This document shows, one piece after another, positions 297-59,840 of a DNA stretch of 64,000 bases. The notes under the pieces were generated by a model. The model made no database searches and was not told the origin of the DNA. It saw nothing but the letters and a program-made list of their open reading frames with translations. Source of the DNA: a bacterium (GTDB lineage: Bacteria; Hydrothermota; UBA3073; JACQXS01; JAGMCI01); NCBI GenBank assembly GCA_030018315.1, contig JASEGA010000001.1, positions 12,673 through 76,672 of the forward strand, given 5' to 3'. The position numbers and the translations under genes are program-made. Within the stretch, counting starts at the first letter, position 1. Each line of letters starts with the position of its first letter.

Positions 297-410
297 TTTA
301 GTATTCTCTTTATATCAATAAAATTGAGATTTGTCAAGTTTTATTAATTCTACTCTTGAACGCTTATCAAATCAAAAACTTGACATCAGTATATTTCTAT
401 ATATGATTAT

Positions 411-438
411 GTAGGGGCGTATTGCAATACGCCCCTAC
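411..438. repeat. Perfect 28-bp palindrome GTAGGGGCGTATTGCAATACGCCCCTAC. It is the intergenic member of the GTAGGG...CCCTAC palindromic element family.
   Basis: Read directly. The arms gtaggggcgtattg and caatacgcccctac are exact reverse complements. The element lies between a TTGACA-like box (380-385) and the GT2 start at 462. Confidence 0.8.
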
Positions 439-461
439 ATTAAAGACGATATCTTTTCCAT

Positions 462-6571: not shown

Positions 6572-7351
6572 ATGCAGCGATTTATAGGAATTGACCTTGC
6601 ATGGTCATATAGGAACACATCGGGTATTTTTGCGCTTGAATGTAAAGACAATAAAATTTTTCAACTTACCTATAATAACTCTATTAAAAAAGATGATGAA
6701 ATTTTAGATTTTATTCAAGCGAATAAGGGCAAAGGAGGCTGTCTTGTAGCTATTGATGCGCCACTTGTAGTTCCAAATGTTAAAGGTACGAGACCAGTAG
6801 ATATTGAGATTACAAAGAGGTTTCATTCTCAAGAAGCTGGCACTTTACCTGCAAATAGAAATATACTTAAGAATAATAAAGGCGAGGTGCGAGGTGAGGT
6901 ACTTGTAGAGAAATTAGAAAAAATTGGATGTGAGCATAGCTTTGAAATTAAAAAACACGATAGAGGATTTAAGGTATTTGAAGTTTTTCCGCATCCAGCA
7001 ATGGTGGTTATTTTTGATTTATCTACTATTCTTAAATATAAAGCAAAAAAAGGGAGGACACTTAATTTTCGACTTAAAGAGTTAGACCGCTATAAGACTT
7101 ATCTCTCTAATCTTCAAAAATTTGTCCCCCCATTAGCTCAACCTCCACCTTTACAGGATTGTAGGGACACGGCATGCCGTGTTCCTACAAAATGTTACGA
7201 AGATTTGTTAGATGCCCTTTTCTGTGCTTGGCTTGCATCCTATTTCTGGTATTGGGGACCGCAAGGATTTGAAGTAGTTGGTGATATGCAAAATGGATAT
7301 ATTGTGTTGCCCAAAATGGCGGGATTCCCCGCCTGTCATTGCGACCCCTGA
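6572..7351 (+). CDS. DUF429-family protein (RNase H-like fold). The 3' end is altered by inserted repeats.
   Basis: The N-terminus FIGIDLAW is DUF429-like. The ORF contains the 28-bp palindrome at 7161-7188 in frame, and its last codons run into the family-B repeat at about 7325. Confidence 0.5.
   Translation: MQRFIGIDLAWSYRNTSGIFALECKDNKIFQLTYNNSIKKDDEILDFIQANKGKGGCLVAIDAPLVVPNVKGTRPVDIEITKRFHSQEAGTLPANRNILKNNKGEVRGEVLVEKLEKIGCEHSFEIKKHDRGFKVFEVFPHPAMVVIFDLSTILKYKAKKGRTLNFRLKELDRYKTYLSNLQKFVPPLAQPPPLQDCRDTACRVPTKCYEDLLDALFCAWLASYFWYWGPQGFEVVGDMQNGYIVLPKMAGFPACHCDP
7161..7188. repeat. GTAGGGAC...GTTCCTAC 28-bp palindromic element inserted in frame within the DUF429 CDS (one arm mismatch)
   Basis: gtagggacacggcatgccgtgttcctac. 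Encodes CRDTACRVPT in the host frame. Confidence 0.8.
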
Positions 7352-14462: not shown

Positions 14463-16313
14463 ATGGCATATTCTATACTAACAATCTTATTAATAGGGAT
14501 TCTGGAAGAAAGTTGGCAGCCTGCATTATTTGATGCTTTAAGTTACATTAAAATGACTCCTCAAGATGTCTATATTACTTCACAACCTTCAGATACATTT
14601 TGCCTTCCATTGGTTCTTGACCTCCTAAAAAGACCTATCCAGTCTCCCAAAGTTGTTGATTCCATCGCTTTAACACTTAAAGATGCTGAACTCAGCGAGC
14701 TTGTAGATATAGCAGGTATATGTATAAATTCTACTTTATCTGATAGTAGTCGAGTTCACTTGGACTCGTTAGCGGCAAAACGAGCTCTACAACTACATAA
14801 GGAGCCACTACAATTTTTGCTTTCCCAAATTACTCTTGCAAATAATTTATTAAAGAGAACGACAGCACAACTTGATTCTTCTGAATTAAACTTCTTAAAA
14901 GAGAATTTACCTAAGATTATACTTGAAGACACTACATTTAAGGACAAAAATCCGTATGAAAAAAAGATTGCAGAGGAAGAAAGTAAAGAAATAGTTAAGA
15001 AATGCCTTAATCTTTTGAAAAAAGTGAATAGAGATGAAATTATGCTATCCGCTTATGTAATTGGAAATGCTATTACACAAACCCTTCCTGGTAGGGACAC
15101 GCCGTGGCGTGTCCCTACAATTAAATATGAAGGAAAGGTTGTAACTCCTGTTGCTACAGGTGATGTTGTCTTTGCTAAGCGTATGGAATATGGATGGATT
15201 GTGATTGGTGGCCCCGGTGAGACTATATATACTGGAGACCCTGCTGTAGTTATTGACCTCGGTGGTGATGATAAATACTATGGTAAAGTAGGAAGTGGGT
15301 CCTCCGGAGTTTCAGTGTGTATTGATTTCTCTGGTAATGACTTATATCTCTCATCTATGGATTACAATTTAGGGTCAGGCTTCTTTGGAGTAGGATTCTT
15401 ATTGGACTTTGAGGGCAATGATATATACTCCTCCGGTAACTTTTCTCATGGCTCCGGATTAGTAGGGGTAGGAATTCTATGGGATACTCAAGGTAATGAC
15501 AAGTATTTTTCTGATACCCATTCTCAAGGAGCAGGCAGTTTTGGGGTAGGAGTTTTGAAAGATTTGAGCGGTAACGATTCTTATCATGGTGCACTTTATG
15601 TACAAGGATTTGGTGGCACTTTCGGGTTTGGTGCTCTCGTGGATTCAGCTGGTAATGATGTTTATTATGCAGGCGGAAAATATAAGGATTGGCTTAGATA
15701 TGAGGACCACTTTTTGTCACTATCTCAAGGTTTTGGTTATGGGATAAGACCTTATGCATCAGGTGGTATTGGAATATTAGCAGATTTTCATGGAAATGAT
15801 TCCTATGTATCAGACATTTTTGGTCAGGGTTGCTCTTATTGGTATGCTTTGGGAGGGCTTATAGATTACGAGGGTAATGATGTGTACAGCTCATACCAAT
15901 ATGCACAAGGGGCAGGTGTCCACATTGGAATTGGTGTTCTTATTGATAAATTTGGGGATGACAGTTATTTTGCAAAAGGTGTATCACAGGGGTGTGGTCA
16001 TGATTATGCGACTGGAATCCTTATAGATGGTGGTGGAAATGACTCCTATTCAGCTTACGATTTATCTCAAGGTGCAGGTAATGCAAATGCTGTCTCAATA
16101 CTTATAGATATAGATGGCAATGATAATTATCTTATAAGAGATAAAGAAACTACACATGGATTTAGTGATTTAAGGCGAGATTTTGGTGGTATTGGAGTGA
16201 TACTCGACCTCGGAGGCAAGGATAAGTATTCAGGATATGGTGATAACAATTCAATATGGGTACACTCAACTTATGGGGTCGGTATAGATAAAGAAATAGA
16301 AAGTTTAAAATGA
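14463..16313 (+). CDS. Repeat protein with about 12 units of a 23-residue GNDxY...QG.G..G.G.L.D motif (FG-GAP-like / beta-propeller or beta-helix-like) after a 230-aa N-terminal domain
   Basis: Repeat units: GGDDKYYG, SGNDLYL, EGNDIYSS, QGNDKYFS, SGNDSYHG, AGNDVYYAG, HGNDSYVSD, EGNDVYSSY, FGDDSYFAKG, GGNDSYSAY, DGNDNYLI, GGKDKYSGYG. Contains the 28-bp palindrome in frame at 15091-15118. Confidence 0.55.
   Translation: MAYSILTILLIGILEESWQPALFDALSYIKMTPQDVYITSQPSDTFCLPLVLDLLKRPIQSPKVVDSIALTLKDAELSELVDIAGICINSTLSDSSRVHLDSLAAKRALQLHKEPLQFLLSQITLANNLLKRTTAQLDSSELNFLKENLPKIILEDTTFKDKNPYEKKIAEEESKEIVKKCLNLLKKVNRDEIMLSAYVIGNAITQTLPGRDTPWRVPTIKYEGKVVTPVATGDVVFAKRMEYGWIVIGGPGETIYTGDPAVVIDLGGDDKYYGKVGSGSSGVSVCIDFSGNDLYLSSMDYNLGSGFFGVGFLLDFEGNDIYSSGNFSHGSGLVGVGILWDTQGNDKYFSDTHSQGAGSFGVGVLKDLSGNDSYHGALYVQGFGGTFGFGALVDSAGNDVYYAGGKYKDWLRYEDHFLSLSQGFGYGIRPYASGGIGILADFHGNDSYVSDIFGQGCSYWYALGGLIDYEGNDVYSSYQYAQGAGVHIGIGVLIDKFGDDSYFAKGVSQGCGHDYATGILIDGGGNDSYSAYDLSQGAGNANAVSILIDIDGNDNYLIRDKETTHGFSDLRRDFGGIGVILDLGGKDKYSGYGDNNSIWVHSTYGVGIDKEIESLK
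15091..15118. repeat. GTAGGGACACGCC-gt-GGCGTGTCCCTAC 28-bp palindromic element, in frame (encodes GRDTPWRVPT)
   Basis: Read directly: 13-bp perfect arms and a 2-nt centre. Confidence 0.85.
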
Positions 16314-24200: not shown

Positions 24201-24599
24201 ATGAGTGCTAAATTGGAGAAAAACATAATTAAAGAGAAAGTATATAAATTTGCTTTGCATGTTATTAATATTAAATTTGTAAATTCCTTGCCCAAAAACA
24301 TGGCAATCCCCATTCTTGGTGGACAACTTCTTCATGCAAGTACTTCTGTGGGAGCAAATGTAGAAGAGGCATTGGGTGCGGATAGCAAGAAGGACTTTTC
24401 TTATAAAATGAGCATTTAAAATGAGCATTGCTAAAAGAGAAGCGCGTGAGAGCAAGTATTGGCTTGAGTTGATAACTGACTCAAAATTAGCAAAAAGAGA
24501 TAATGACTTAATTAGGGAAGCAAGCGAGTTAGTGAGTATCTTACCGAGTATTGTTAAGACTTCGCAAAGGAACACAGAACATCGAGCTAGGGGTAACTA
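24201..24599 (+). pseudogene. Four-helix-bundle protein (23S rRNA intervening-sequence protein family) disrupted by a 13-bp tandem duplication (24405-24430)
   Basis: ..YKFALHVINI..LPKNMAIPILGGQLLHASTSVGANVEEALGADSKKDFSYKMSI*, then in the +1 frame MSIAKREARESKYWLELITDSKL... The sequence aaaatgagcattt is directly repeated. Confidence 0.6.
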
Positions 24600-24626
24600 A
24601 TTTAGCATTTAGAATTAAGAATTTTT

Positions 24627-28289: not shown

Positions 28290-28955
28290 ATGTTATATTT
28301 TATACTTTTTGTTTTCCTTTTAGCAGATTTAAAAGTTTATACTGTAACAAAAACGATTAACTCTCCTTTAACTACCAAAGAAACGCTTAAAGGAAAGAAT
28401 ATACTTATGGTGATTGCACATAATAATTTCCGTGACGATGAATATCAGATTCCAAGAGAGTTTTTTGAAGACTTGGGTGCTAAATTAGTTGTTGCCTCAT
28501 CTGATACTACTCCTGCAATAGGTATGTTTAAGCTCAAAGTAAAGCCTGATATTCTTTTAACCCAAGTTACTATAGCTGATTTTGACGCTTTAGTCTTTGT
28601 TGGTGGCTCAGGTATTACAGAGTACTGGGATAGCAAAGAAGTTCACACTCTTGTTGACATTGCATTTAAGAGTAATAAAGTTGTAGGAGCTATATGCATA
28701 GCACCGATTATTCTTGCAAGAGCTGGTATCTTAAAAGGTAAAAAGGCAACTGTTTGGGAAAGTGTAGAGACAAAGCGCATTTTTAATGAAGAGGGAGTGA
28801 AATACACAAGATTGCCAGTTGTAACGAGTGGCAATATTGTGACTGCAAATGGACCTCAGGCTGCGAAGTTATTTACAGAGTCAATTGTAAATCTTTTGAT
28901 AAAGGGAAATGAGGGTTGTAGTTCAAAGAGTAAAGAGGGCAAGTTGCGAGATTAA
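28290..28955 (+). CDS. DJ-1/PfpI-family protein with N-terminal signal/anchor
   Basis: The motif VFVGGSG..VVGAICIAP is DJ-1/PfpI-like. A TTGACA-17-AATATT promoter lies upstream (28255-28283). Confidence 0.6.
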   Translation: MLYFILFVFLLADLKVYTVTKTINSPLTTKETLKGKNILMVIAHNNFRDDEYQIPREFFEDLGAKLVVASSDTTPAIGMFKLKVKPDILLTQVTIADFDALVFVGGSGITEYWDSKEVHTLVDIAFKSNKVVGAICIAPIILARAGILKGKKATVWESVETKRIFNEEGVKYTRLPVVTSGNIVTANGPQAAKLFTESIVNLLIKGNEGCSSKSKEGKLRD

Positions 28956-29349
28956 TGAAGAAATTATCTCTCAAATTGGGAGTGGGTTTTTAATCCTTAT
29001 TGGAGTAGAAAAGGGTGACAAGCCTCAATCTGCTAAATACTTGGCTCATAAATGTGCTAATTTACGTATCTTTGAAGATTCATATGGAAAAATGAACCTC
29101 TCTCTAAAGGAGATAAAAGGGGGTGAGGTTCTTGTAATTTCTCAATTTACTTTATGTGCTGACTGTAAAAAGGGATTAAGACCAAGTTTTGATTATGCTT
29201 CTTCTCCAGATCAAGCAATCGCCCTTTATAAAAAGTTTATAGAATTCCTTCGTTCTGAAGGCGTTACAGTTAAAGAGGGTGTGTTCGGTGAGAGAATGTC
29301 TATCTCACTTATAAACGAGGGTCCGGTTACCTTTATTTTATCAACATAA
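28909..29349 (+). CDS. dtd: D-aminoacyl-tRNA deacylase
   Basis: MRVVVQRVKRASCEI..GFLILIGVEKGD..SQFTL..GPVTF matches Dtd throughout. Confidence 0.85.
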   Translation: MRVVVQRVKRASCEINEEIISQIGSGFLILIGVEKGDKPQSAKYLAHKCANLRIFEDSYGKMNLSLKEIKGGEVLVISQFTLCADCKKGLRPSFDYASSPDQAIALYKKFIEFLRSEGVTVKEGVFGERMSISLINEGPVTFILST

Positions 29350-29351
29350 AT

Positions 29352-29388
29352 TGTAGATTGCTTTGCTGTCGCTCGCAATGACAGAGGG
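29352..29388 (+). repeat. Family-B dispersed repeat (tgtagattgctttgctgtcgctcgcaatgacag) immediately 3' of dtd
   Basis: Read directly. Near-identical to the copy at 30231. Confidence 0.75.
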
Positions 29389-30216: not shown

Positions 30217-30230
30217 ATTTAGACTGAATG

Positions 30231-30266
30231 TAGATTGCTTTGCTGTCGCTCGCAATGACAGTGGGG
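30231..30266 (+). repeat. Family-B dispersed repeat immediately 3' of yicC
   Basis: atgtagattgctttgctgtcgctcgcaatgacagtgggg. Confidence 0.75.
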
Positions 30267-31159: not shown

Positions 31160-32297
31160 TATAGCAGCTTATAAAGCATTAGAAATTGTGCGTTTATTTA
31201 AGAAAAAGGGTGAAGATATATTCTGTGTATTAACTCGGGAGGCAACAAAGTTTGTCTCCCCTCTTTCATTTTATACGCTTTCTGGCAACGAAGTTATATT
31301 TGATTTTTTTGAGTTAAAGAGGACACCAGTCCATGTTGAGCTTGCAACTCTTGATGCTATACTTGTTGCTCCTGCAACTTATAACTTAATAGGTAAAGTA
31401 GCGTCAGGAATAGCTGATGATGCGCTCTCCTGTATAATTGCTGATACTCGGTCACCTGTCATTTTTGCGCCATGCATGGATACAGGGATGTGGGAAAATT
31501 CAATACTTCAAGATAATATAAAGAAATTGAAATCACTTGGCTACCACTTTATAGAGCCAGTTATTGGTGAACTTTCTACCTTACAGATTGGGAAAGGTAG
31601 GTTTCCAACTCCTGAATTCATTGTAGAAGAGACTTATCGTATTCTTTACTCATCTAATGAACTGAATGGCAAGAAGATTCTTGTAACAGCAGGTAGGACA
31701 GAAGAAGACATTGACCCTGTGAGATGTATAACTAATAGGTCATCTGGTATAATGGGATATGCACTTGCATATGAGGCAAGGAGGCGGGGCGGCGATGTCA
31801 CCCTTATTTCAGGTCCATCAAGTAGGGACACGCCATGGCGTGTCCCTACATCTGGGGTGAAACTTGTAAATGTGAGAACTACTAATGAACTTGAGTTAGA
31901 GGTTTTATCACGAGCCTCTGCTTCTGACATACTTATAATGGCGGCTGCAGTCGCAGATTATACACCTGTTCAACAATTTGATAAAAAAGTGAAAAATGAG
32001 TATATGGATATAAAATTAAAGCGGACGCACGATATTCTCAAGCTTGTAAGGAAGAAGAATAAGGGGCTATTTATTATTGGCTTTTCTTTAGAAACCGATG
32101 AGCATATAAAATGGGCAAAAACTAAGCTTAGAGATAAAGCTCTCAATCTCATAGTTTCTAATGATGTAGCTTCAATTGGCTCAAATGAGGCTCGAGTTAG
32201 TCTTATCAATTGCAATTTAAAAATAAAAAAATTGCCACTACTTCCAAAGTCTGAAGTTGCAAAGAAGATAATTGATTATGTGGTAGCCAGTATTTGA
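31116..32297 (+). CDS. coaBC: Bifunctional phosphopantothenoylcysteine decarboxylase / phosphopantothenate-cysteine ligase. Carries an in-frame palindromic element insert.
   Basis: Flavoprotein N-terminus KIVLGVTGSIAAYKA and a DFP C-terminal domain. The insert SRDTPWRVPTS lies at 31822-31849. Confidence 0.9.
   Translation: MRQEMKKIVLGVTGSIAAYKALEIVRLFKKKGEDIFCVLTREATKFVSPLSFYTLSGNEVIFDFFELKRTPVHVELATLDAILVAPATYNLIGKVASGIADDALSCIIADTRSPVIFAPCMDTGMWENSILQDNIKKLKSLGYHFIEPVIGELSTLQIGKGRFPTPEFIVEETYRILYSSNELNGKKILVTAGRTEEDIDPVRCITNRSSGIMGYALAYEARRRGGDVTLISGPSSRDTPWRVPTSGVKLVNVRTTNELELEVLSRASASDILIMAAAVADYTPVQQFDKKVKNEYMDIKLKRTHDILKLVRKKNKGLFIIGFSLETDEHIKWAKTKLRDKALNLIVSNDVASIGSNEARVSLINCNLKIKKLPLLPKSEVAKKIIDYVVASI
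31822..31849. repeat. Perfect 28-bp palindrome GTAGGGACACGCCATGGCGTGTCCCTAC inserted in frame in coaBC
   Basis: Read directly; the centre is CCATGG. Confidence 0.9.
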
Positions 32298-40974: not shown

Positions 40975-42075
40975 ATGATAGAAATTAGAGAACTTAAAGG
41001 GAATGTTATACACGATTTTCCGTATCCTAAAGCTCGCAGGAAATGTCCACATACTGCACTTATATCTGTAACACACTCAGGAGCCTGTATCCATAAGTGC
41101 CCAATGTGCTATGCGAGAGCATACCCATGGTCAGTTGAAGATGAGCTTGTAATTTATGAAAATGTGCCAGATAAATTGGAAAAAGAAATACAGAAGGCAA
41201 AAGTTTTGCCCCCATTTTATATATCACAAGTAAGTGATGCACTCCAACCAGTGTCTGAAGTGAGAGAGCTTACATTTAAAGTAATAAAAATAATTATCAA
41301 ATACAAACTAAGTTTCCATATACTGACTAAATCTGCAGATGGGGCATTAGAACTTATCAACAATATACCAGAACTTATACTGTATCCTTACTGGTATCTA
41401 GCAATGACTGTAGAAGCTACACCTGAGAAGCATGAAATCACATCTCCTTATGCATCCCCTATTGAGGAAAGGTTTAAAGCAATTAAAAAATTAACCCGAT
41501 ATGGAATACCAGTTGTGGGACGAGTAGACCCTACAATACTTGGATTTGTTGAACTTGATGAAGTGTGCTGGATTATAAACAGACTTGCAGATAGTGGTGT
41601 ACAACATATAATTGGATCGCTTGGCTACTATAATACTTTAGCTATGAAGAGATTACTTGATGCCATCTTGCACTCAAATTGGAAAGATTGCATCCCAAAA
41701 GTAGAAAAAATTTATGGCTGTAGGGGTTTGATTAATCAAACCCCTACAATAAATGATTATCCTAAAAGTAAACGATTTATGGCATCTCTTGATACAAGAA
41801 TTAAATTTCATTCAATATTGAGGAGAGAAGCCGAAAAATATGGGCTATCTTATGCTGTATGCTTAGAACTACCCAAAGAATACGATTCAAAAGGAATACC
41901 GTCATGCGAAGGTATAAAAAGGAATTTTGTCCACATTAAAGGAGAAGATGGAGATTTTCACCTTGTGAATTGTTGTGGTGATTGTCTGCACTCTTGCCCT
42001 AATGAGAGCAACCCACCGTGTGGTAAGAAAGAACTACAGATACAATATCCGTATAAACTAAGAACATTAAGTTAA
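40975..42075 (+). CDS. Radical SAM domain protein with C-terminal Cys cluster
   Basis: CIHKCPMC (CX3CX2C) at the N-terminus and CCGDCLHSCPNESNPPC at the C-terminus. Confidence 0.55.
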   Translation: MIEIRELKGNVIHDFPYPKARRKCPHTALISVTHSGACIHKCPMCYARAYPWSVEDELVIYENVPDKLEKEIQKAKVLPPFYISQVSDALQPVSEVRELTFKVIKIIIKYKLSFHILTKSADGALELINNIPELILYPYWYLAMTVEATPEKHEITSPYASPIEERFKAIKKLTRYGIPVVGRVDPTILGFVELDEVCWIINRLADSGVQHIIGSLGYYNTLAMKRLLDAILHSNWKDCIPKVEKIYGCRGLINQTPTINDYPKSKRFMASLDTRIKFHSILRREAEKYGLSYAVCLELPKEYDSKGIPSCEGIKRNFVHIKGEDGDFHLVNCCGDCLHSCPNESNPPCGKKELQIQYPYKLRTLS

Positions 42076-52552: not shown

Positions 52553-55198
52553 TTACAATTTGATTAAATTAATATGCTCTTGTAGTTTAAGTAACTTTTG
52601 TTCATATTCTTTTACCTTTTCTCTTGTCTTTTTTACTATCTCTCGTGGTGCTTTTGAAAGGAAATCGGGTGAACTCAGACGGGCTTGAATGCTTTTGAGA
52701 AGCGAGCTAACTTCTAACTGCTCTGTTTCAAGTTTTTTGAGTTCTGCTTTTAAGTCTATAAGACCTGAGAGCGGTATAAATATTTCTACTCCTTTTGTGA
52801 GTTTAATGGTGCATCCCTTAGGCACAGACTCTGTAAATTCAATTGCCTTAACTTTACCTAATTTCTCAATGTATAATTTATTTTCATCAATAATTGAGCG
52901 TTCACGAGTTCCACACTTTACTAAAAGTCTTATCAATTTAGTTTTAGGAATATTCATAGTAGCTCTTGTATTTCTGCATGTTATTATAATATTTTTGATA
53001 ATTTCAAATCCTTTTTCGGCATCTGAATCAAAGTAACCCGTCTCCGCCTCCGGCCATTTACTTACCATAATTGATGGTTCTTTATGTGTTATCATTTGCC
53101 ACACTTCTTCTGTTACAAATGGCATAAATGGGTGTAATAACTTCAAACTACGGTCAAGAATCTCCAATGCAATTCCTTTACACTTCTTTATTTTAATAAT
53201 TTCAAGGTACCAGTCACAAAAGTCGTGCCATAAGAAGTCGTAAATCCGCATAAGTGGCTCTTGTAATTTATATCTTGAAAGTAATTCAGTCACATCCTTA
53301 GTAAGTTTATGTATCCGTGATAATATCCAGCGGTCAGCAAGACTAAGAGGCAAGTCAGGAGACCTGCCTCTACCCGGTTTTTCTTCTGCGTCCGGTAGTG
53401 ATGCAATAAGTCTGTACGCATTCCAAATTTTGTTCGTAAAATTCCTACCACTTTCAAATGTATTAGTTGCAATATGAGGGTCTTGACCTTCACCAGCCGC
53501 AGTTATAAGTGAAAAACGCATCGCATCTGTTCCGTAGTCCTTTATAATATCTCTCGGGTCTATCCCATTACCTAACGATTTTGACATCTTCCTACCCTGT
53601 GCATCTCTCACAGTTCCGTGTATATACACATCTTTGAAAGGCGGCTTTCCAGTAAATTCGTAGCCCGCCATAATCATGCGTGCAACCCAGAAAAAGATTA
53701 TCTCTGATGCAGTACTAAGCATAGAAGTGGGATAAAAATAATTAAGTTCATCTGTCTCCTCTGGCCACCCAAATGTAGAGAATGGCCATAGCCAGGATGA
53801 GAACCAAGTATCAAGTACATTAGTATCTTGAACTAATGTCTTTGATTCGCAGTAAGGACAATTTTCCGGCCTCTTAGTAGAAACAATAACCCCATTTTGC
53901 ATTTTACATTTTTCATTTAGCATTTCCTTGCAATACCATACAGGGATGCGATGTCCCCACCATATCTGTCTTGATATACACCAGTCTTTGATATTATACA
54001 TCCAGTTCAAATAAACACCTTTCCACCTATCTGGATAAAACTTAATTATGCCATTCTCAACTGCTTCTATTGCTGGCTTAGCCATCTCCTTCATCTTAAC
54101 AAACCATTGTTCAGATAGGATTGGCTCAACTACAGTATTGCACCTGTAACAGTGACCTAATGAGTAACGATAAGGTGTAGTCTTTGCAAGAAGCCCAATA
54201 GTTTTGAGTTCAGATAGAATCTTCTTCCTTGCATCAAATCTATCGAGCCCATTATATTTACCACCATTTTCATTAATCACTCCCCGCTTATCCATAATAA
54301 GTATTTTCGGTAAATTATGACGAATAGAAAGCTCAAAATCAATTGGGTCATGAGCGGGTGTAACCTTAACCACTCCGGTACCAAATTTTGGGTCAACTAC
54401 ATCGTCTGAAATAACGGGTATTTCACGATTCATAAGTGGGAGTATTGCCGTGCATTTAATAAACTTAGCATTCTTTTTATCTTTTGGATTAACTGCACAA
54501 GCAGTATCACCGAGCATTGTTTCAGGTCGAGTAGTAGCTACTTGTATAAATTTATTTTTACCTTTTACCTGTCCGTCGACAGGCAAGATTGGATAATTGA
54601 TATAGTAAAGTTTACCATTAATTTCTTTATGTTCTACTTCCTCGTCAGCAAGTGCAGTCTCACACCTCGGGCACCAGTTAACAATGTAATCCCCTTTGTA
54701 AATCATCCTCTTTTTATAAAGTCTAACAAAAGCCTCATAAACCGCATTGGATAGCCCTTCATCAAGTGTAAACCTTGTCCGCGTCCAGTCACATGAGCAT
54801 CCAATATCTTTAAGTTGCGCAATGATAGTATCCTTTTTTTCATGCACCCACTTCCACACAAGTTCAATGAATTTCTCTTTACCTATTTTTTCTTTTGATT
54901 CGCCCTTCAGTATTTCTTTCTCAACTATAACTTCAGTAGCAATCCCTGCATGGTCGACTCCTGGTAGCCATTCAGCTTCAAATCCCTGCATCCGCTTCCA
55001 TCTAATGAATATATCCTGTATTGTGTTATTTAGAGCTTGCCCAAGATGCAGGACATCAGTTACATTTGGTGGTGGTATTACAATTGAAAATGGCTTAAGT
55101 TCAGGATTAGGGCTTGCATTAAAATAGCCGTTATCAAGCCAAAACTTGTACCACTTACCCTCTACTTCCTTTGGATTGTATATTTTATGAATTTGCAT
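52553..55198 (-). CDS. valS: Valine--tRNA ligase
   Basis: HIGH-type PPPNVTDVLHLGQ, KMSKS, and a C-terminal coiled coil. 881 aa. Confidence 0.95.
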   Translation of the reverse strand: MQIHKIYNPKEVEGKWYKFWLDNGYFNASPNPELKPFSIVIPPPNVTDVLHLGQALNNTIQDIFIRWKRMQGFEAEWLPGVDHAGIATEVIVEKEILKGESKEKIGKEKFIELVWKWVHEKKDTIIAQLKDIGCSCDWTRTRFTLDEGLSNAVYEAFVRLYKKRMIYKGDYIVNWCPRCETALADEEVEHKEINGKLYYINYPILPVDGQVKGKNKFIQVATTRPETMLGDTACAVNPKDKKNAKFIKCTAILPLMNREIPVISDDVVDPKFGTGVVKVTPAHDPIDFELSIRHNLPKILIMDKRGVINENGGKYNGLDRFDARKKILSELKTIGLLAKTTPYRYSLGHCYRCNTVVEPILSEQWFVKMKEMAKPAIEAVENGIIKFYPDRWKGVYLNWMYNIKDWCISRQIWWGHRIPVWYCKEMLNEKCKMQNGVIVSTKRPENCPYCESKTLVQDTNVLDTWFSSWLWPFSTFGWPEETDELNYFYPTSMLSTASEIIFFWVARMIMAGYEFTGKPPFKDVYIHGTVRDAQGRKMSKSLGNGIDPRDIIKDYGTDAMRFSLITAAGEGQDPHIATNTFESGRNFTNKIWNAYRLIASLPDAEEKPGRGRSPDLPLSLADRWILSRIHKLTKDVTELLSRYKLQEPLMRIYDFLWHDFCDWYLEIIKIKKCKGIALEILDRSLKLLHPFMPFVTEEVWQMITHKEPSIMVSKWPEAETGYFDSDAEKGFEIIKNIIITCRNTRATMNIPKTKLIRLLVKCGTRERSIIDENKLYIEKLGKVKAIEFTESVPKGCTIKLTKGVEIFIPLSGLIDLKAELKKLETEQLEVSSLLKSIQARLSSPDFLSKAPREIVKKTREKVKEYEQKLLKLQEHINLIKL

Positions 55199-55343: not shown

Positions 55344-56090
55344 GTGGAAAATTTAGCCAAAAAAGTTTCCAACTCTAAATTTGTAGTGACACTAACAGGA
55401 GCTGGCGTTTCAGCAGAGAGTGGCATTTCTACATTTAGAGATAAAGATGGGCTCTGGAAAACCTATCGTGTCGATGAGCTTGCTACTCCTAATGCATTTG
55501 CAAGGAATCCTAAATTAGTATGGGAATGGTATGAATGGCGCAGAAATATAATCCGCAACGCCTCTCCTAACCCAGCCCATTATGCAATTGCAAAATTAGA
55601 AAGAACTCTACAAAATTTCCTACTCATCACCCAAAATGTAGACAATCTACATAAAGTAGCGGGTTCAGAAAAAATAATAGAGTTACATGGTAATATATTT
55701 AAGAATAAATGCTCAAGGTGTGGCAAAATTTACGATGCAACTAAAGGGCCAGTCCCTTTGGGACAGTCCCTTGAAAATCTGCAGTGTGATTGTGGTGGTC
55801 TTTTACGTCCCGATGTCGTATGGTTTGGTGAATCTATTCCCCATATTGAAGCTGCATTTAATGCAAGTTCAACTTGTGATTTTATGTTAGTTGTAGGCAC
55901 CTCTGGAACAGTGGAGCCAGCTGCTTCTCTTCCCTATATTGCTAAAAGGGCTGGTGCCTTTATCCTTGAGATTAACCTGAATGAGACTCCGCTCACTCAG
56001 GTTGCTGATTATTCTATATTTGGTAAAGCAGGAGAAATACTACCAACTTTAGTGCAAAATTTATTGACAGTTCAAAAATTTAAAGTATAA
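55344..56090 (+). CDS. cobB: NAD-dependent protein deacylase (Sir2 family)
   Basis: GAGVSAESGISTFRD, a Zn Cys pair (CSRCG..CDCGG) and VVWFGE. Confidence 0.85.
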   Translation: MENLAKKVSNSKFVVTLTGAGVSAESGISTFRDKDGLWKTYRVDELATPNAFARNPKLVWEWYEWRRNIIRNASPNPAHYAIAKLERTLQNFLLITQNVDNLHKVAGSEKIIELHGNIFKNKCSRCGKIYDATKGPVPLGQSLENLQCDCGGLLRPDVVWFGESIPHIEAAFNASSTCDFMLVVGTSGTVEPAASLPYIAKRAGAFILEINLNETPLTQVADYSIFGKAGEILPTLVQNLLTVQKFKV

Positions 56091-56100
56091 TTTAAAGAGT

Positions 56101-56183
56101 AAAATTATGAATTATAAATGCTGAATGCTAAATTAAGAAATTCATAATTGAGCATTAAGAATTTAGCATTTCTAAAGTGAAGA
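56101..56183 (+). repeat. 83-bp interleaved-inverted-repeat element (copy 1) forming the leader and GTG-AAG start of tpiA
   Basis: aaaattatgaattataaatgctgaatgctaaattaagaaattcataattgagcattaagaatttagcatttctaaaGTGaag. Interleaved inverted repeats: aattatgaatt/aattcataatt and aatgctaaatt/aatttagcatt. Confidence 0.8.
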
Positions 56184-56965
56184 GGCGTTATCTAATTGCA
56201 GGAAATTGGAAGATGAACAAAACAATTGGAGAAGCAGTAGAGTTAGCAACTAAAATAAAAACTGGACTCACCGAGATAGACGATATAGATATAGCCATAT
56301 TCCCACCATTTACTGCTCTATATCCTGTTTATGAAGTAATAAAGGAGTCAAATATTAATTTAGGGGCTCAAAATTTATGGTACGAATCTAATGGTGCCTA
56401 TACAGGTGAGATTTCACCTATCTTCATTGTAGATGTAGGCTGTAAGTATGTGATTATAGGACATTCAGAGCGTAGACAATACTGTGGTGAAACAGCTGAA
56501 CTTGTAAACCGTAAGCTTAAGACAGCACTCAAATATGGACTTATCTCCATTGTTTGTATAGGTGAAACAATAGAAGAAAGAGAGAATGGAAAAACATACG
56601 AATTAGTTGAGCGTGAATTCAATGTTGCATTTGATGGCCTTCTACCGGGGACAGTCCCCATACGGGGACAGTCCCCTTTTCTACCTATAACTATAGCTTA
56701 TGAGCCAATCTGGGCAATTGGAACTGGGTTTACAGCAACTCCTAAAATTGCAGAAGAAGTGCATAAGTTTATAAGGAAATTGGTGGAAACTAAATATGGT
56801 TACAAAGTAGCAGAAGAGTTTCGCATCCTTTATGGTGGTAGTGTGAACTCTGAAACCATATCTGGACTCCTCCGTGAGCCTGACATAGATGGCGTCCTTG
56901 TAGGAGGGGCGAGTTTGGATGCAAAATCATTCATAGAAATAGTTAAGAAAGCAAACAGTATATGA
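56177..56965 (+). CDS. tpiA: Triosephosphate isomerase with a 13-residue in-frame insertion near the active-site Glu
   Basis: AGNWKMN and AYEPIWAIGTG. GTG start. The insertion at 56647-56685 encodes GTVPIRGQSPFLP. Confidence 0.9.
   Translation: MKRRYLIAGNWKMNKTIGEAVELATKIKTGLTEIDDIDIAIFPPFTALYPVYEVIKESNINLGAQNLWYESNGAYTGEISPIFIVDVGCKYVIIGHSERRQYCGETAELVNRKLKTALKYGLISIVCIGETIEERENGKTYELVEREFNVAFDGLLPGTVPIRGQSPFLPITIAYEPIWAIGTGFTATPKIAEEVHKFIRKLVETKYGYKVAEEFRILYGGSVNSETISGLLREPDIDGVLVGGASLDAKSFIEIVKKANSI
56642..56685 (+). repeat. 39-bp insertion: 2 x GGGGACAGTCCCC palindromic units plus 5-bp direct repeat CTACC (target-site-duplication-like), inside tpiA
   Basis: CTACCggggacagtccccatacggggacagtccccttttCTACC. 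Removing 39 bp restores ..DGLLPITIAYEPIW. Confidence 0.75.
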
Positions 56966-57047
56966 AAATTATGAATTATAAATGCTGAATGCTAAATTAA
57001 GAAATTCATAATTGAGCATTAAGAATTTAGCATTTCTAATGTGAAGA
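56965..57047 (+). repeat. 83-bp element copy 2 (1 mismatch from copy 1) forming the leader and GTG-AAG start of pdxA
   Basis: Same sequence as 56101-56183 except A-to-T 3 nt before the GTG. It begins at the tpiA stop codon. Confidence 0.8.
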
Positions 57048-58015
57048 TTGGTATAACAATAGGCGACCCATCTGGGATTGGACCTGAGGTAACACTAAAA
57101 GCTTTACAATCTCTTAAAACCATAAATGAGGTGCGACCTCAAGAGGTGCAACCTCAAGCTGTTGTAATAGGAGCCCAGTCTATAATTGATGAGACAATAG
57201 AAAGATTTGGCATTCAATGGGATGGCGAAGTAATAAATTGTAGCGAGCTCAAAAGAGTGGATGTAGGCTATGGGAAGCTATCAGCGTTAGCTGGTAGGGC
57301 AGCTTATAGTTTTATTTTAAAAGGATACGAGCTTATAAACGATAAAAAAATTGACGCCTTAGTGACAGCTCCAATTTGTAAAGCTTCGCTAAATCTTGCC
57401 GGTTTTAACTTTCCAGGTCATACTGAGTTGCTTGCAAATCTATCAAATACAAAACGGTTTGCAATGATGCTTTGTGGTGATGAAATTAGAGTAACACTTG
57501 TGACAACACATATTCAACTTAAAAGAGTTCCTGAGGTACTAACAAAAGAGCAAATTGTTGAAAAAATAGAACTAACATATGAGTTTTTGAGTACCCGTTT
57601 TAACATCCATTCACCCAAAATTGGCATTTGTGCTTTAAATCCACATGGGGGTGAGGGTATTTTTGGTAACGAAGAAGCTCTAATAATAAAACCAGCAATA
57701 GATGATGCAAAGAAAAAAGGAATTCTTGTTGATGGTCCCTATGCAGCAGATACTTTATTTACACGTACTGATTTTGATGCAATAATAGCTATGTATCATG
57801 ACCAAGGTTTAATTCCTATTAAACTCAAGGAATTTGGTCATGCAGTAAATGTGACTATAGGACTACCTTTTGTTCGTACATCTCCAGACCATGGTACAGC
57901 TTTTGATATAGCAGGAAAAGGGATAGCAAATCCTGAGAGTATGATTCGGGCAATAAAGCTGGCAGTCCGGCTGGCTCAACTGAAGCCAGAAAGATTAGCT
58001 GAGGGTAGGACATAA
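57041..58015 (+). CDS. pdxA: 4-hydroxythreonine-4-phosphate dehydrogenase
   Basis: KIGITIGDPSGIGPEV and the PdxA metal-site motifs. GTG start. Contains an in-frame 15-bp tandem duplication at 57128-57157. Confidence 0.85.
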   Translation: MKIGITIGDPSGIGPEVTLKALQSLKTINEVRPQEVQPQAVVIGAQSIIDETIERFGIQWDGEVINCSELKRVDVGYGKLSALAGRAAYSFILKGYELINDKKIDALVTAPICKASLNLAGFNFPGHTELLANLSNTKRFAMMLCGDEIRVTLVTTHIQLKRVPEVLTKEQIVEKIELTYEFLSTRFNIHSPKIGICALNPHGGEGIFGNEEALIIKPAIDDAKKKGILVDGPYAADTLFTRTDFDAIIAMYHDQGLIPIKLKEFGHAVNVTIGLPFVRTSPDHGTAFDIAGKGIANPESMIRAIKLAVRLAQLKPERLAEGRT

Positions 58016-59776: not shown

Positions 59777-59787
59777 CAGTAGTATGT

Positions 59788-59840
59788 GTATAGATTGCTT
59801 CGCTATCGCTCGCAATGACAGTGGGTAGGTTCACAATGAC
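59788..59840 (+). repeat. Family-B dispersed repeat immediately 3' of the transketolase C subunit, with an extra caatgacag half-copy
   Basis: gtatagattgcttcgctatcgctcgcaatgacagtgggtaggttcacaatgacagc. Confidence 0.75.

Follow-up and report, generated by a model that had tools for sequence, protein, structure and literature searches.

The gene tpiA, which encodes triose-phosphate isomerase (TIM), lies in a 64-kb stretch of contig JASEGA010000001.1 (assembly GCA_030018315.1; the whole stretch analysed is called the window below) from an uncultivated low-GC bacterium, and carries a short GC-rich palindromic segment within its coding sequence. The tpiA open reading frame (ORF) has as its top PDB match the Thermotoga maritima TIM 1b9b (E = 3e-73) and is assigned to PF00121 in the precomputed Pfam annotation. 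The gene and the parts of the segment are as follows.

56177..56965, plus strand: tpiA, the host gene; catalytic motifs all present (N10, K12, H96, E176, AYEPIWAIGTG lid, YGGS, GGASL)
56640..56646, no strand: left copy of the 7-bp direct repeat TTCTACC; host sequence outside the element, not found at other copies
56647..56676, no strand: core element, the 30-bp imperfect palindrome GGGGACAGTCCCC-ATAC-GGGGACAGTCCCC; 10 codons, GTVPIRGQSP in the tpiA frame
56647..56659, no strand: unit 1, GGGGACAGTCCCC; matches the published GGGG[AT][CG]A[CG] motif (PMC3733652; PMC6006769)
56664..56676, no strand: unit 2, GGGGACAGTCCCC; together with the TTTTCT that comes next it resembles a terminator on the sense strand
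56679..56685, no strand: right-hand copy of TTCTACC, the 7-bp direct repeat; the preceding TTT codon encodes a Phe conserved in most relatives

The sequence at 56642-56685 reads CTACC-GGGGACAGTCCCC-ATAC-GGGGACAGTCCCC-TTTT-CTACC (CTACCGGGGACAGTCCCCATACGGGGACAGTCCCCTTTTCTACC), exactly as the initial annotation of this DNA had it, with tandem near-palindromic units bounded by CTACC. The in-frame translation is LPGTVPIRGQSPFLP (residues 156-170), followed by ITI and then by AYEPIW, which contains the catalytic Glu176. Two particulars of that annotation need amendment. The direct repeat is present, with a true length of 7 bp rather than 5 bp, and the two tandem palindromic units are present but jointly form one 30-bp imperfect palindrome.

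The segment has a GC content of 70%, versus 39% for the gene and ~36% for the window. With up to two mismatches allowed, the 13-mer GGGGACAGTCCCC occurs five times in the window against 0.35 expected, a count reached in none of 100 shuffles. As single-stranded DNA the 30-mer forms a hairpin whose 13-bp stem has a single central mismatch, A.A (or T.T), and whose loop is 4 nt long (z = -5.0 for the plus strand and -4.9 for the minus strand), and none of 200 shuffled sequences was equally stable. The element shares a GGGAC...GTCCC core with the 28-30-bp GTAGGGACACGCC... family of the window, in agreement with the GGGACA...TGTCCC core that had been noted as common to the segment and a 28-bp family.

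Extent and setting of the tpiA insert

The identical protein is on record from a metagenome-assembled contig of 222 kb. The nearest relatives of the window TpiA are 55-72% identical to it and come mostly from candidate division WOR-3 and similar uncultivated lineages. We took as loop length the number of residues between the GE[TS] motif that follows strand 5 and AYEP, a distance measurable in 115 of the 119 nearest homologues. This distance was 30 in five homologues, 31 in one, 32 in 20, 33 in eight and 34 in 81, versus 42 in the window TpiA, and the insert was not found in any measurable loop among the 119. None of these homologues has a loop of equal length, and the reading frame is kept. 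The proposal of an in-frame insertion of foreign, repeat-type palindromic DNA is supported.

Removal of 30 bp from tpiA gives a distance of 32 and the sequence DGLLPFLPITIAYEP, a length shared with 20 homologues (e.g., P0004 and P0051). P0004 is the relative most like the window TpiA in the loop region, and its loop, DGLASVTPITIAYEP, has the same length as the 30-bp-removed form. Removal of 39 bp, the excision said to restore a canonical TIM sequence, keeps the frame but leaves a distance of 29, which falls below every measured homologue (range 30-34), and also deletes a Phe that aligns with the Phe conserved in most relatives. The exact tpiA 30-mer, ATAC loop included, is found in eight further metagenome contigs from unrelated organisms having GC contents of 0.32-0.70. 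These eight copies lie in both coding and non-coding settings, and their flanks are wholly different, with no flanking repeats and no CTACC. As the identical 30-mers elsewhere have other flanks and the 30-bp removal gives a homologue-like loop length, the insertion most likely comprised just the 30-bp imperfect palindrome (56647-56676) rather than a 39-bp unit with a target-site duplication. The eight copies with unrelated flanks place the element boundaries at 30 bp and also rule out an independent local origin.

The flanking repeat is the main ground for a different account, in which the segment would be a 32-34-bp palindromic miniature transposon that was moved by a cut-and-paste DDE-type transposase, duplicated 5-7 bp of target (CTACC or TTCTACC) and left a 39-bp footprint whose precise excision restores the ancestral gene. 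We consider this account unlikely. The repeat is perfect over 7 bp, abuts the palindrome on the left and lies 2 nt from it on the right, and has a probability of ~0.003 of bordering a 30-bp gap by chance (random window positions); moreover, 30 and 39 are both multiples of three, and the frame is kept either way. However, a flanking repeat is found at none of the eight exact 30-mers and reaches 5 bp or more at just 11 of 155 related doublets, the longest of those being in tandem arrays, and at the five other 30-bp palindromes in the window the two flanks have no more than 3 bp in common. These three sets of copies speak against the 39-bp unit with a target-site duplication that had been proposed at the outset, and the 29-residue distance and the conserved Phe encoded by the TTT codon within the footprint argue the same way. 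A miniature inverted-repeat transposable element derived from a DDE transposon would have terminal inverted repeats and, at each of its copies, a target-site duplication of one set length; here a flanking repeat is at the tpiA copy only, and no parent transposon was seen. Most likely the 7-bp repeat is not a regular target-site duplication and reflects either pre-existing host codons (CTT CTA CCT and TTT CTA CCT, encoding LLP and FLP) or a by-product of this insertion event. On the tpiA minus strand GTAG precedes the doublet by 4 nt and follows it by 1 nt. We rejected GTAG as a part of the element, since the flanks vary among the eight exact copies.

The AlphaFold model of the window TpiA (mean predicted local distance difference test score, pLDDT, 87.9) is a TIM barrel with a coil at residues 152-171 (pLDDT ~53 at 161-170) that joins helix 140-151 to strand 172-175. 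In TIM barrels the loops that lead from a helix to a strand are on the side away from the catalytic strand ends. By the model, the 30-bp insert would be a loop of low confidence that connects helix 5 with strand 6, on the side of the barrel away from the active site. The insert had been described as sitting immediately before the catalytic strand, which is true in sequence; in the fold, however, the loop is opposite the active site. All of the catalytic columns listed above, from N10 to GGASL, are invariant in the homologue alignment.

All six frames of the 30-mer are free of stop codons, and the peptides GTVPIRGQS, GQSPYGDSP, GDSPHTGTVP, GLSPYGDCP, GTVPVWGLS and GDCPRMGTVP are all found in open frames elsewhere. 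Persistence of the tpiA copy would be accounted for by a length that is a multiple of three and by the stop-free frames, and the Gly/Pro/Ser/Thr-rich peptide that it encodes, if seated in a surface loop opposite the active site as modelled, would leave the enzyme functional. From the standpoint of protein science, the insert marks loops that tolerate 10-residue insertions.

The doublet family and Y1 transposases

We scanned a collection containing one genome per species for GGGACNGTCCC-N(1-8)-GGGACNGTCCC, with N at the unit centres, and at least 120 loci matched. Among the matches listed, which do not include the source genome, the GGGGACWGTCCCC doublet spans roughly a dozen phyla, its hosts being Actinomycetota, Pseudomonadota, Planctomycetota, Omnitrophota, Patescibacteria/Saccharibacteria, Acidobacteriota, Bacillota, Myxococcota, Verrucomicrobiota, Armatimonadota, Chloroflexota, WOR-3 and others. 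Several genomes in this set give three to four separate doublet loci each, and the commonest form is GGGGACTGTCCCC-GCA-GGGGACTGTCCCC. The free unit centres are A or T in 137 of the 160 matches listed, with the same base in both units in 103. As the centres are mostly A/T and matched, the motif is specific and not a by-product of GC-rich hairpins. The doublet is found also in isolate genomes (Metabacillus, Amycolatopsis and Pseudoduganella), and the exact doublet was not found in viral contigs. A search of 56400-56900 at a permissive threshold gave no Rfam family match for the tpiA element and nothing else relevant, and a search of literature full text for an 11-mer of the unit returned unrelated primers only, with no relevant context. 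The 30-bp core in tpiA is foreign in composition, absent from the homologue loops, identical to copies in unrelated organisms and a member of a dispersed multi-phylum family.

Doublets lie in frame in other protein genes as well. Examples from Saccharibacteria are a valyl-tRNA synthetase (L102) and a glycosyltransferase with several copies (L007). Others are UvrC in a Patescibacteria metagenome-assembled genome (MAG; L058), a protein resembling CobQ (L049) and giant proteins (L083, L109 and L120). At 2800-4000 of L007, from a Saccharibacteria MAG, one glycosyltransferase-like ORF contains several doublet peptides (GTVPEGQS, EGLSLRDSPL, QGLSLKD, GQSLGYSP...RGTVP), which indicates a single gene colonised repeatedly by doublets. 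Doublets together with their flanks also form short tandem arrays in genomes of Pseudoduganella, Kuenenia and an Actinomycetes MAG (L010 1006-1098, L016 5805-5876 and L115 6012-6053); the tpiA copy is single.

At three loci, two from Planctomycetota (L068 and L112) and one from Actinomycetes (L100), inverted doublets bracket an ORF with an IS200-like Y1 transposase domain (Y1_Tnp, PF01797, E = 1e-8 to 3e-15), a layout that is that of a classical REPtron or TIRtron. As a raw count, ORFs with this domain occur in 6 of the 120 listed loci. The top NCBIfam match of the three flanked proteins is 'REP-associated tyrosine transposase' (RAYT; REP, repetitive extragenic palindrome), and no C-terminal helix-turn-helix (HTH) domain was found in them in Pfam. 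The L100 genome also has dispersed doublets; the copy at L059 is of the same type as those that flank its transposase gene. A small hidden Markov model (HMM) built from three Y1 sequences gave no match in the loci of relatives or in the eight metagenome contigs that contain the exact 30-mer. Passages of Di Nocera et al. 2013 (PMC3733652) describe genes for Y1 transposases bordered by inverted repeats with the common motif GGGGWSAS, which include 'double palindromic' ones and form repeat families, and a passage of Quentin et al. 2018 (PMC6006769) equates the TIRYTs with subclass 2.1 of TnpA_REP. Both units of the tpiA element start with GGGGACAG and so conform to GGGG[AT][CG]A[CG], the motif as worded in those passages. 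The element is also a short (20-40 bp) GC-rich imperfect palindrome with stem-loop capacity, as REPs and terminal inverted repeats (TIRs) are.

Given these properties, the tpiA segment is probably a copy of a small mobile REP-like 'double palindrome', two GGGGACWGTCCCC units spaced 3-6 nt apart, that landed in the codons of the loop between helix 5 and strand 6. Copies would move as hairpins of single-stranded DNA, mobilised in trans by a Y1/HUH transposase, and, by analogy with the IS200/IS605 and REP/RAYT systems, would do so without target duplication. Several observations weigh against this explanation. The commonest homologue loop is 34 and not 32, and a clean addition of 30 bp is thus not the sole reading of the lengths. 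The 7-bp repeat is improbable by chance and is not accounted for by a duplication-free mechanism. The 64 kb of this genome contain only one intact and one decayed doublet copy, and the small HMM found no Y1 transposase gene in the window. In the other genomes, the three flanked Y1 proteins score 67.6-79.6 bits, just under the equivalog cutoff of 80.

The stable hairpin might instead have been selected as a cis-acting structure, either a hairpin plus U-run that affects the tpiA mRNA through attenuation, pausing or stability, or a protein-binding site with a pair of 13-bp operators. This appears improbable to us. On the sense strand a consensus scan does flag 56664-56676 plus TTTTCTACCT as resembling a terminator, the hairpin in RNA has a very high stability (-25.4 kcal/mol, short flanks included), and many doublets in other genomes lie between A-runs and T-runs in the manner of bidirectional terminators. 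However, the hairpin is in mid-gene, 289 nt before the stop codon, is not seen in the tpiA relatives and has no Rfam family, and the same 30-mer occurs in unrelated coding and non-coding contexts. A terminator amid an essential gene would be harmful, and translation normally suppresses terminators, which also counts against a regulatory role. A side effect of the hairpin on transcription is possible but is unlikely to be why the sequence is there.

Other palindromes and repeats in the window

The window contains the following further palindromic elements, none of which has an assigned strand.

55747..55775: degenerate second doublet copy, GGGCCAGTCCC-TT-TGGGACAGTCCCTT; in frame as GPVPLGQSL in the Sir2-family gene 55344..56090
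31821..31850: (A)GTAGGGACACGCCATGGCGTGTCCCTACA, a 30-bp palindrome that is GTAG-ended; encodes SRDTPWRVPT in the coaBC frame
15090..15119: GTAG-ended palindrome of the coaBC type; in frame in ORF 14463..16313, GRDTPWRVPT
7160..7189: GTAG-ended palindrome of the coaBC type with slight decay; encodes CRDTACRVPT in the frame of the DUF429 gene 6572..7351
41719..41748: TGTAGGGGTTTGATTAATCAAACCCCTACA, 30 bp and GTAG-ended but unlike the coaBC palindrome at its centre; encodes CRGLINQTPT in the frame of the radical-SAM gene 40975..42075
410..439: TGTAGGGGCGTATTGCAATACGCCCCTACA, a GTAG-ended palindrome of 30 bp that is intergenic
57128..57157: GAGGTGCGACCTCAA-GAGGTGCAACCTCAA, a 30-bp double hairpin of another kind; encodes EVRPQEVQPQ in the pdxA frame

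The Sir2-family gene adjoins tpiA, and its doublet copy lies between the two Cys pairs of a Zn ribbon and is read in the same frame as in tpiA. Its hairpin is weak (z = -1.5), and the protein is just ~3-4 residues longer at this place than its PDB homologues, so that a clean insertion is not demonstrable. The palindromes at 7160, 15090, 31821, 41719 and 410 all start with GTAG and end with CTAC (TGTAGGG...CCCTACA). The four of these that are intragenic share one frame (xRDTPWRVPT or CRGLINQTPT), and one of the three frames would give TAG stops.

The palindrome in CoaBC comprises 10 codons, yet at that point the protein has only five residues more than all 39 close relatives (15 bp net), and the same holds for the 10-codon palindrome of the radical-SAM protein when set against its two closest relatives, P0361 and P0362 (five residues, 15 bp net). 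In both genes about five native codons seem, from these alignments, to have been lost or overwritten rather than added to, a pattern that hints at a mode of insertion that replaces target DNA. To our knowledge no such mode has been described for REPs. The native DNA of a CoaBC relative matches the palindrome arms at 10 of 15 and 9 of 15 positions, which is not decisive. Jointly with a target-replacing mode, we put forward as a tentative view that the GGGGACWGTCCCC doublet is one pan-bacterial 'coding-compatible' family of mini-elements, with a sequence of ~30 nt that stays nearly constant in genomes of 32-70% GC from roughly a dozen phyla, presumably because a Y1 transposase that moves horizontally has to recognise it, and able by virtue of six stop-free frames to colonise even essential genes such as tpiA, valS and uvrC.

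The net gain of only 15 bp in CoaBC and the radical-SAM protein could also be taken to favour a local de novo origin, in which the tpiA segment arose, with no mobile element, by tandem duplication of a 17-bp unit or by template switching from a native GTCCCC...ATA. The two units do form a tandem repeat with a 17-bp period, and at the aligned place P0004 has GTG ACC CCC ATA, which resembles the GTC CCC ATA in the insert. Such an origin is very improbable for tpiA, because identity at 30 of 30 positions, ATAC loop included, with eight contigs of unrelated organisms cannot arise independently, and because the doublet family is tied to transposase genes elsewhere. Template-switching hairpin formation was rejected for tpiA on account of these exact copies. 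An assembly or sequencing artefact is scarcely credible: although the window comes from a MAG and hairpins can provoke polymerase and assembly errors, the reading frame is preserved across the segment, the window has at least six further in-frame palindromes, and the same element is present in the isolate genomes named above.

In pdxA, the insert consists of two tandem 15-bp units, each with a 13-bp palindrome, and gives a clean addition of 10 residues relative to P0242 and P0243. Other pdxA relatives (P0244, P0245, P0250, P0251 and P0256) have other long insertions in the same loop (e.g., IGSPLQDSPLRD and EVRPSRQVGISAPD...), which suggests that the loop is an insertion hot spot. An 83-bp AT-rich repeat with internal inverted repeats lies directly upstream of the tpiA and pdxA start codons (56101-56183 and 56965-57047, 99% identical), with a partial third copy at 24594-24624, and a perfect TTGACA-16-TATAAT promoter-like site at 56064-56091 stands just before the first copy. 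Another dispersed family is a 46-nt repeat, ...TAGATTGCTTTGCTGTCGCTCGCAATGACAGTGGG, found at 29343-29388, 30220-30265 and 59780-59825 (copies 85% identical); two of its copies lie just past an ORF end and one lies across the stop codon of ORF 28909..29349. Inside valS (minus strand), at ~53346-53371, there is a 26-nt GC-rich hairpin, AGAGGCAAGTCAGGAGACCTGCCTCT, which encodes PGRGRSPDLPLS and may be another in-frame palindromic insert. The GGGGACWGTCCCC doublet of the Saccharibacteria valyl-tRNA synthetase (L102) likewise lies in the C-terminal part.

Comparison with known palindromic repeat systems

Short GC-rich hairpins that invade coding regions in frame within an AT-rich genome are known from fungal mitochondria (GC-rich clusters and double-hairpin elements). 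Those elements differ in being organellar and unrelated in sequence, often have TA or AG target duplications and involve no Y1 transposase. Among the Rickettsia palindromic elements (RPEs), RPE-1 is about 100-150 bp long, and we know of no transposase for the CGTC-type RPEs. RPE-1, RPE-4/6 and the intragenic REPs resemble the tpiA element as in-frame palindromic repeats in known, often essential protein genes, and insertion in frame with the host protein kept intact, an RPE trait, is seen in tpiA. The RPEs differ in sequence family, size and host lineage, the host here being a relative of candidate division WOR-3. The tpiA element is not a member of an RPE family, being 30 bp long, without a CGTC tag and unrelated in sequence (RPE-4/6 are CGTC-tagged REPs in the passages of PMC3733652 consulted).

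Likeness to the REP/REPIN and RAYT systems is closer. These comprise a short GC-rich imperfect hairpin in many copies, often paired, together with a single-copy IS200-like Y1 transposase, and lack target duplication; moreover, the stem mismatch of the tpiA element resembles the irregularities that serve strand-specific recognition in REPs. Unlike the GTAG-tagged REPs, however, the tpiA element has no GTAG of its own, and the GTAG-ended 30-bp palindromes of the window fit that class better. REPs are also typically extragenic and lineage-specific, whereas the tpiA 30-mer is identical in organisms of 32-70% GC.

The TIRs of TIRtrons are alike in several respects. The GGGGACAG unit fits GGGG[AT][CG]A[CG], some published TIRs are 'double palindromic' (in passages of PMC3733652 and PMC6006769), and the doublet brackets Y1_Tnp genes as inverted copies in three genomes and is dispersed there too. 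The likeness is one of motif description as those passages give it. On the other side, the three flanked Y1 ORFs have no Pfam C-terminal HTH, a domain said to typify subclass 2.1, and no transposase was found in the 64-kb window.

Two points bear on work with other genomes. In annotation, peptides such as GTVP..GQSP, RDSP..GLSL and RDTPWRVPT in metagenome proteins are repeat footprints and not protein motifs. For mechanistic work, a near-identical 30-mer in very different genomes together with the Y1 link offers a defined candidate substrate-enzyme pair for the study of REP-type spread. REP-like hairpins, usually deemed extragenic, are here part of the reading frame of a central metabolic enzyme in an uncultivated bacterium of low GC, and several genes within one 64 kb carry in-frame palindromic inserts.

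The tpiA element observed is confirmed as real, and its class is probably that of the REP/TIR-type repeats of Y1 transposases. The initial annotation, which had seen in it the footprint of a transposition-like insertion, named the right kind of event, selfish palindromic DNA in an essential gene, and erred in the boundaries, the target duplication, the restoration of a 'canonical' sequence and the implied closeness to the active site. Intragenic cases are already known: passages of PMC3733652 describe intragenic REPs (the GTAG REPs of Opitutus terrae) and the Rickettsia RPEs, dimers of which add 20-30 residues and are thought to be located in loops. As intragenic palindromic repeats were known before, the tpiA insert is a clear example of them and not a new kind of element.

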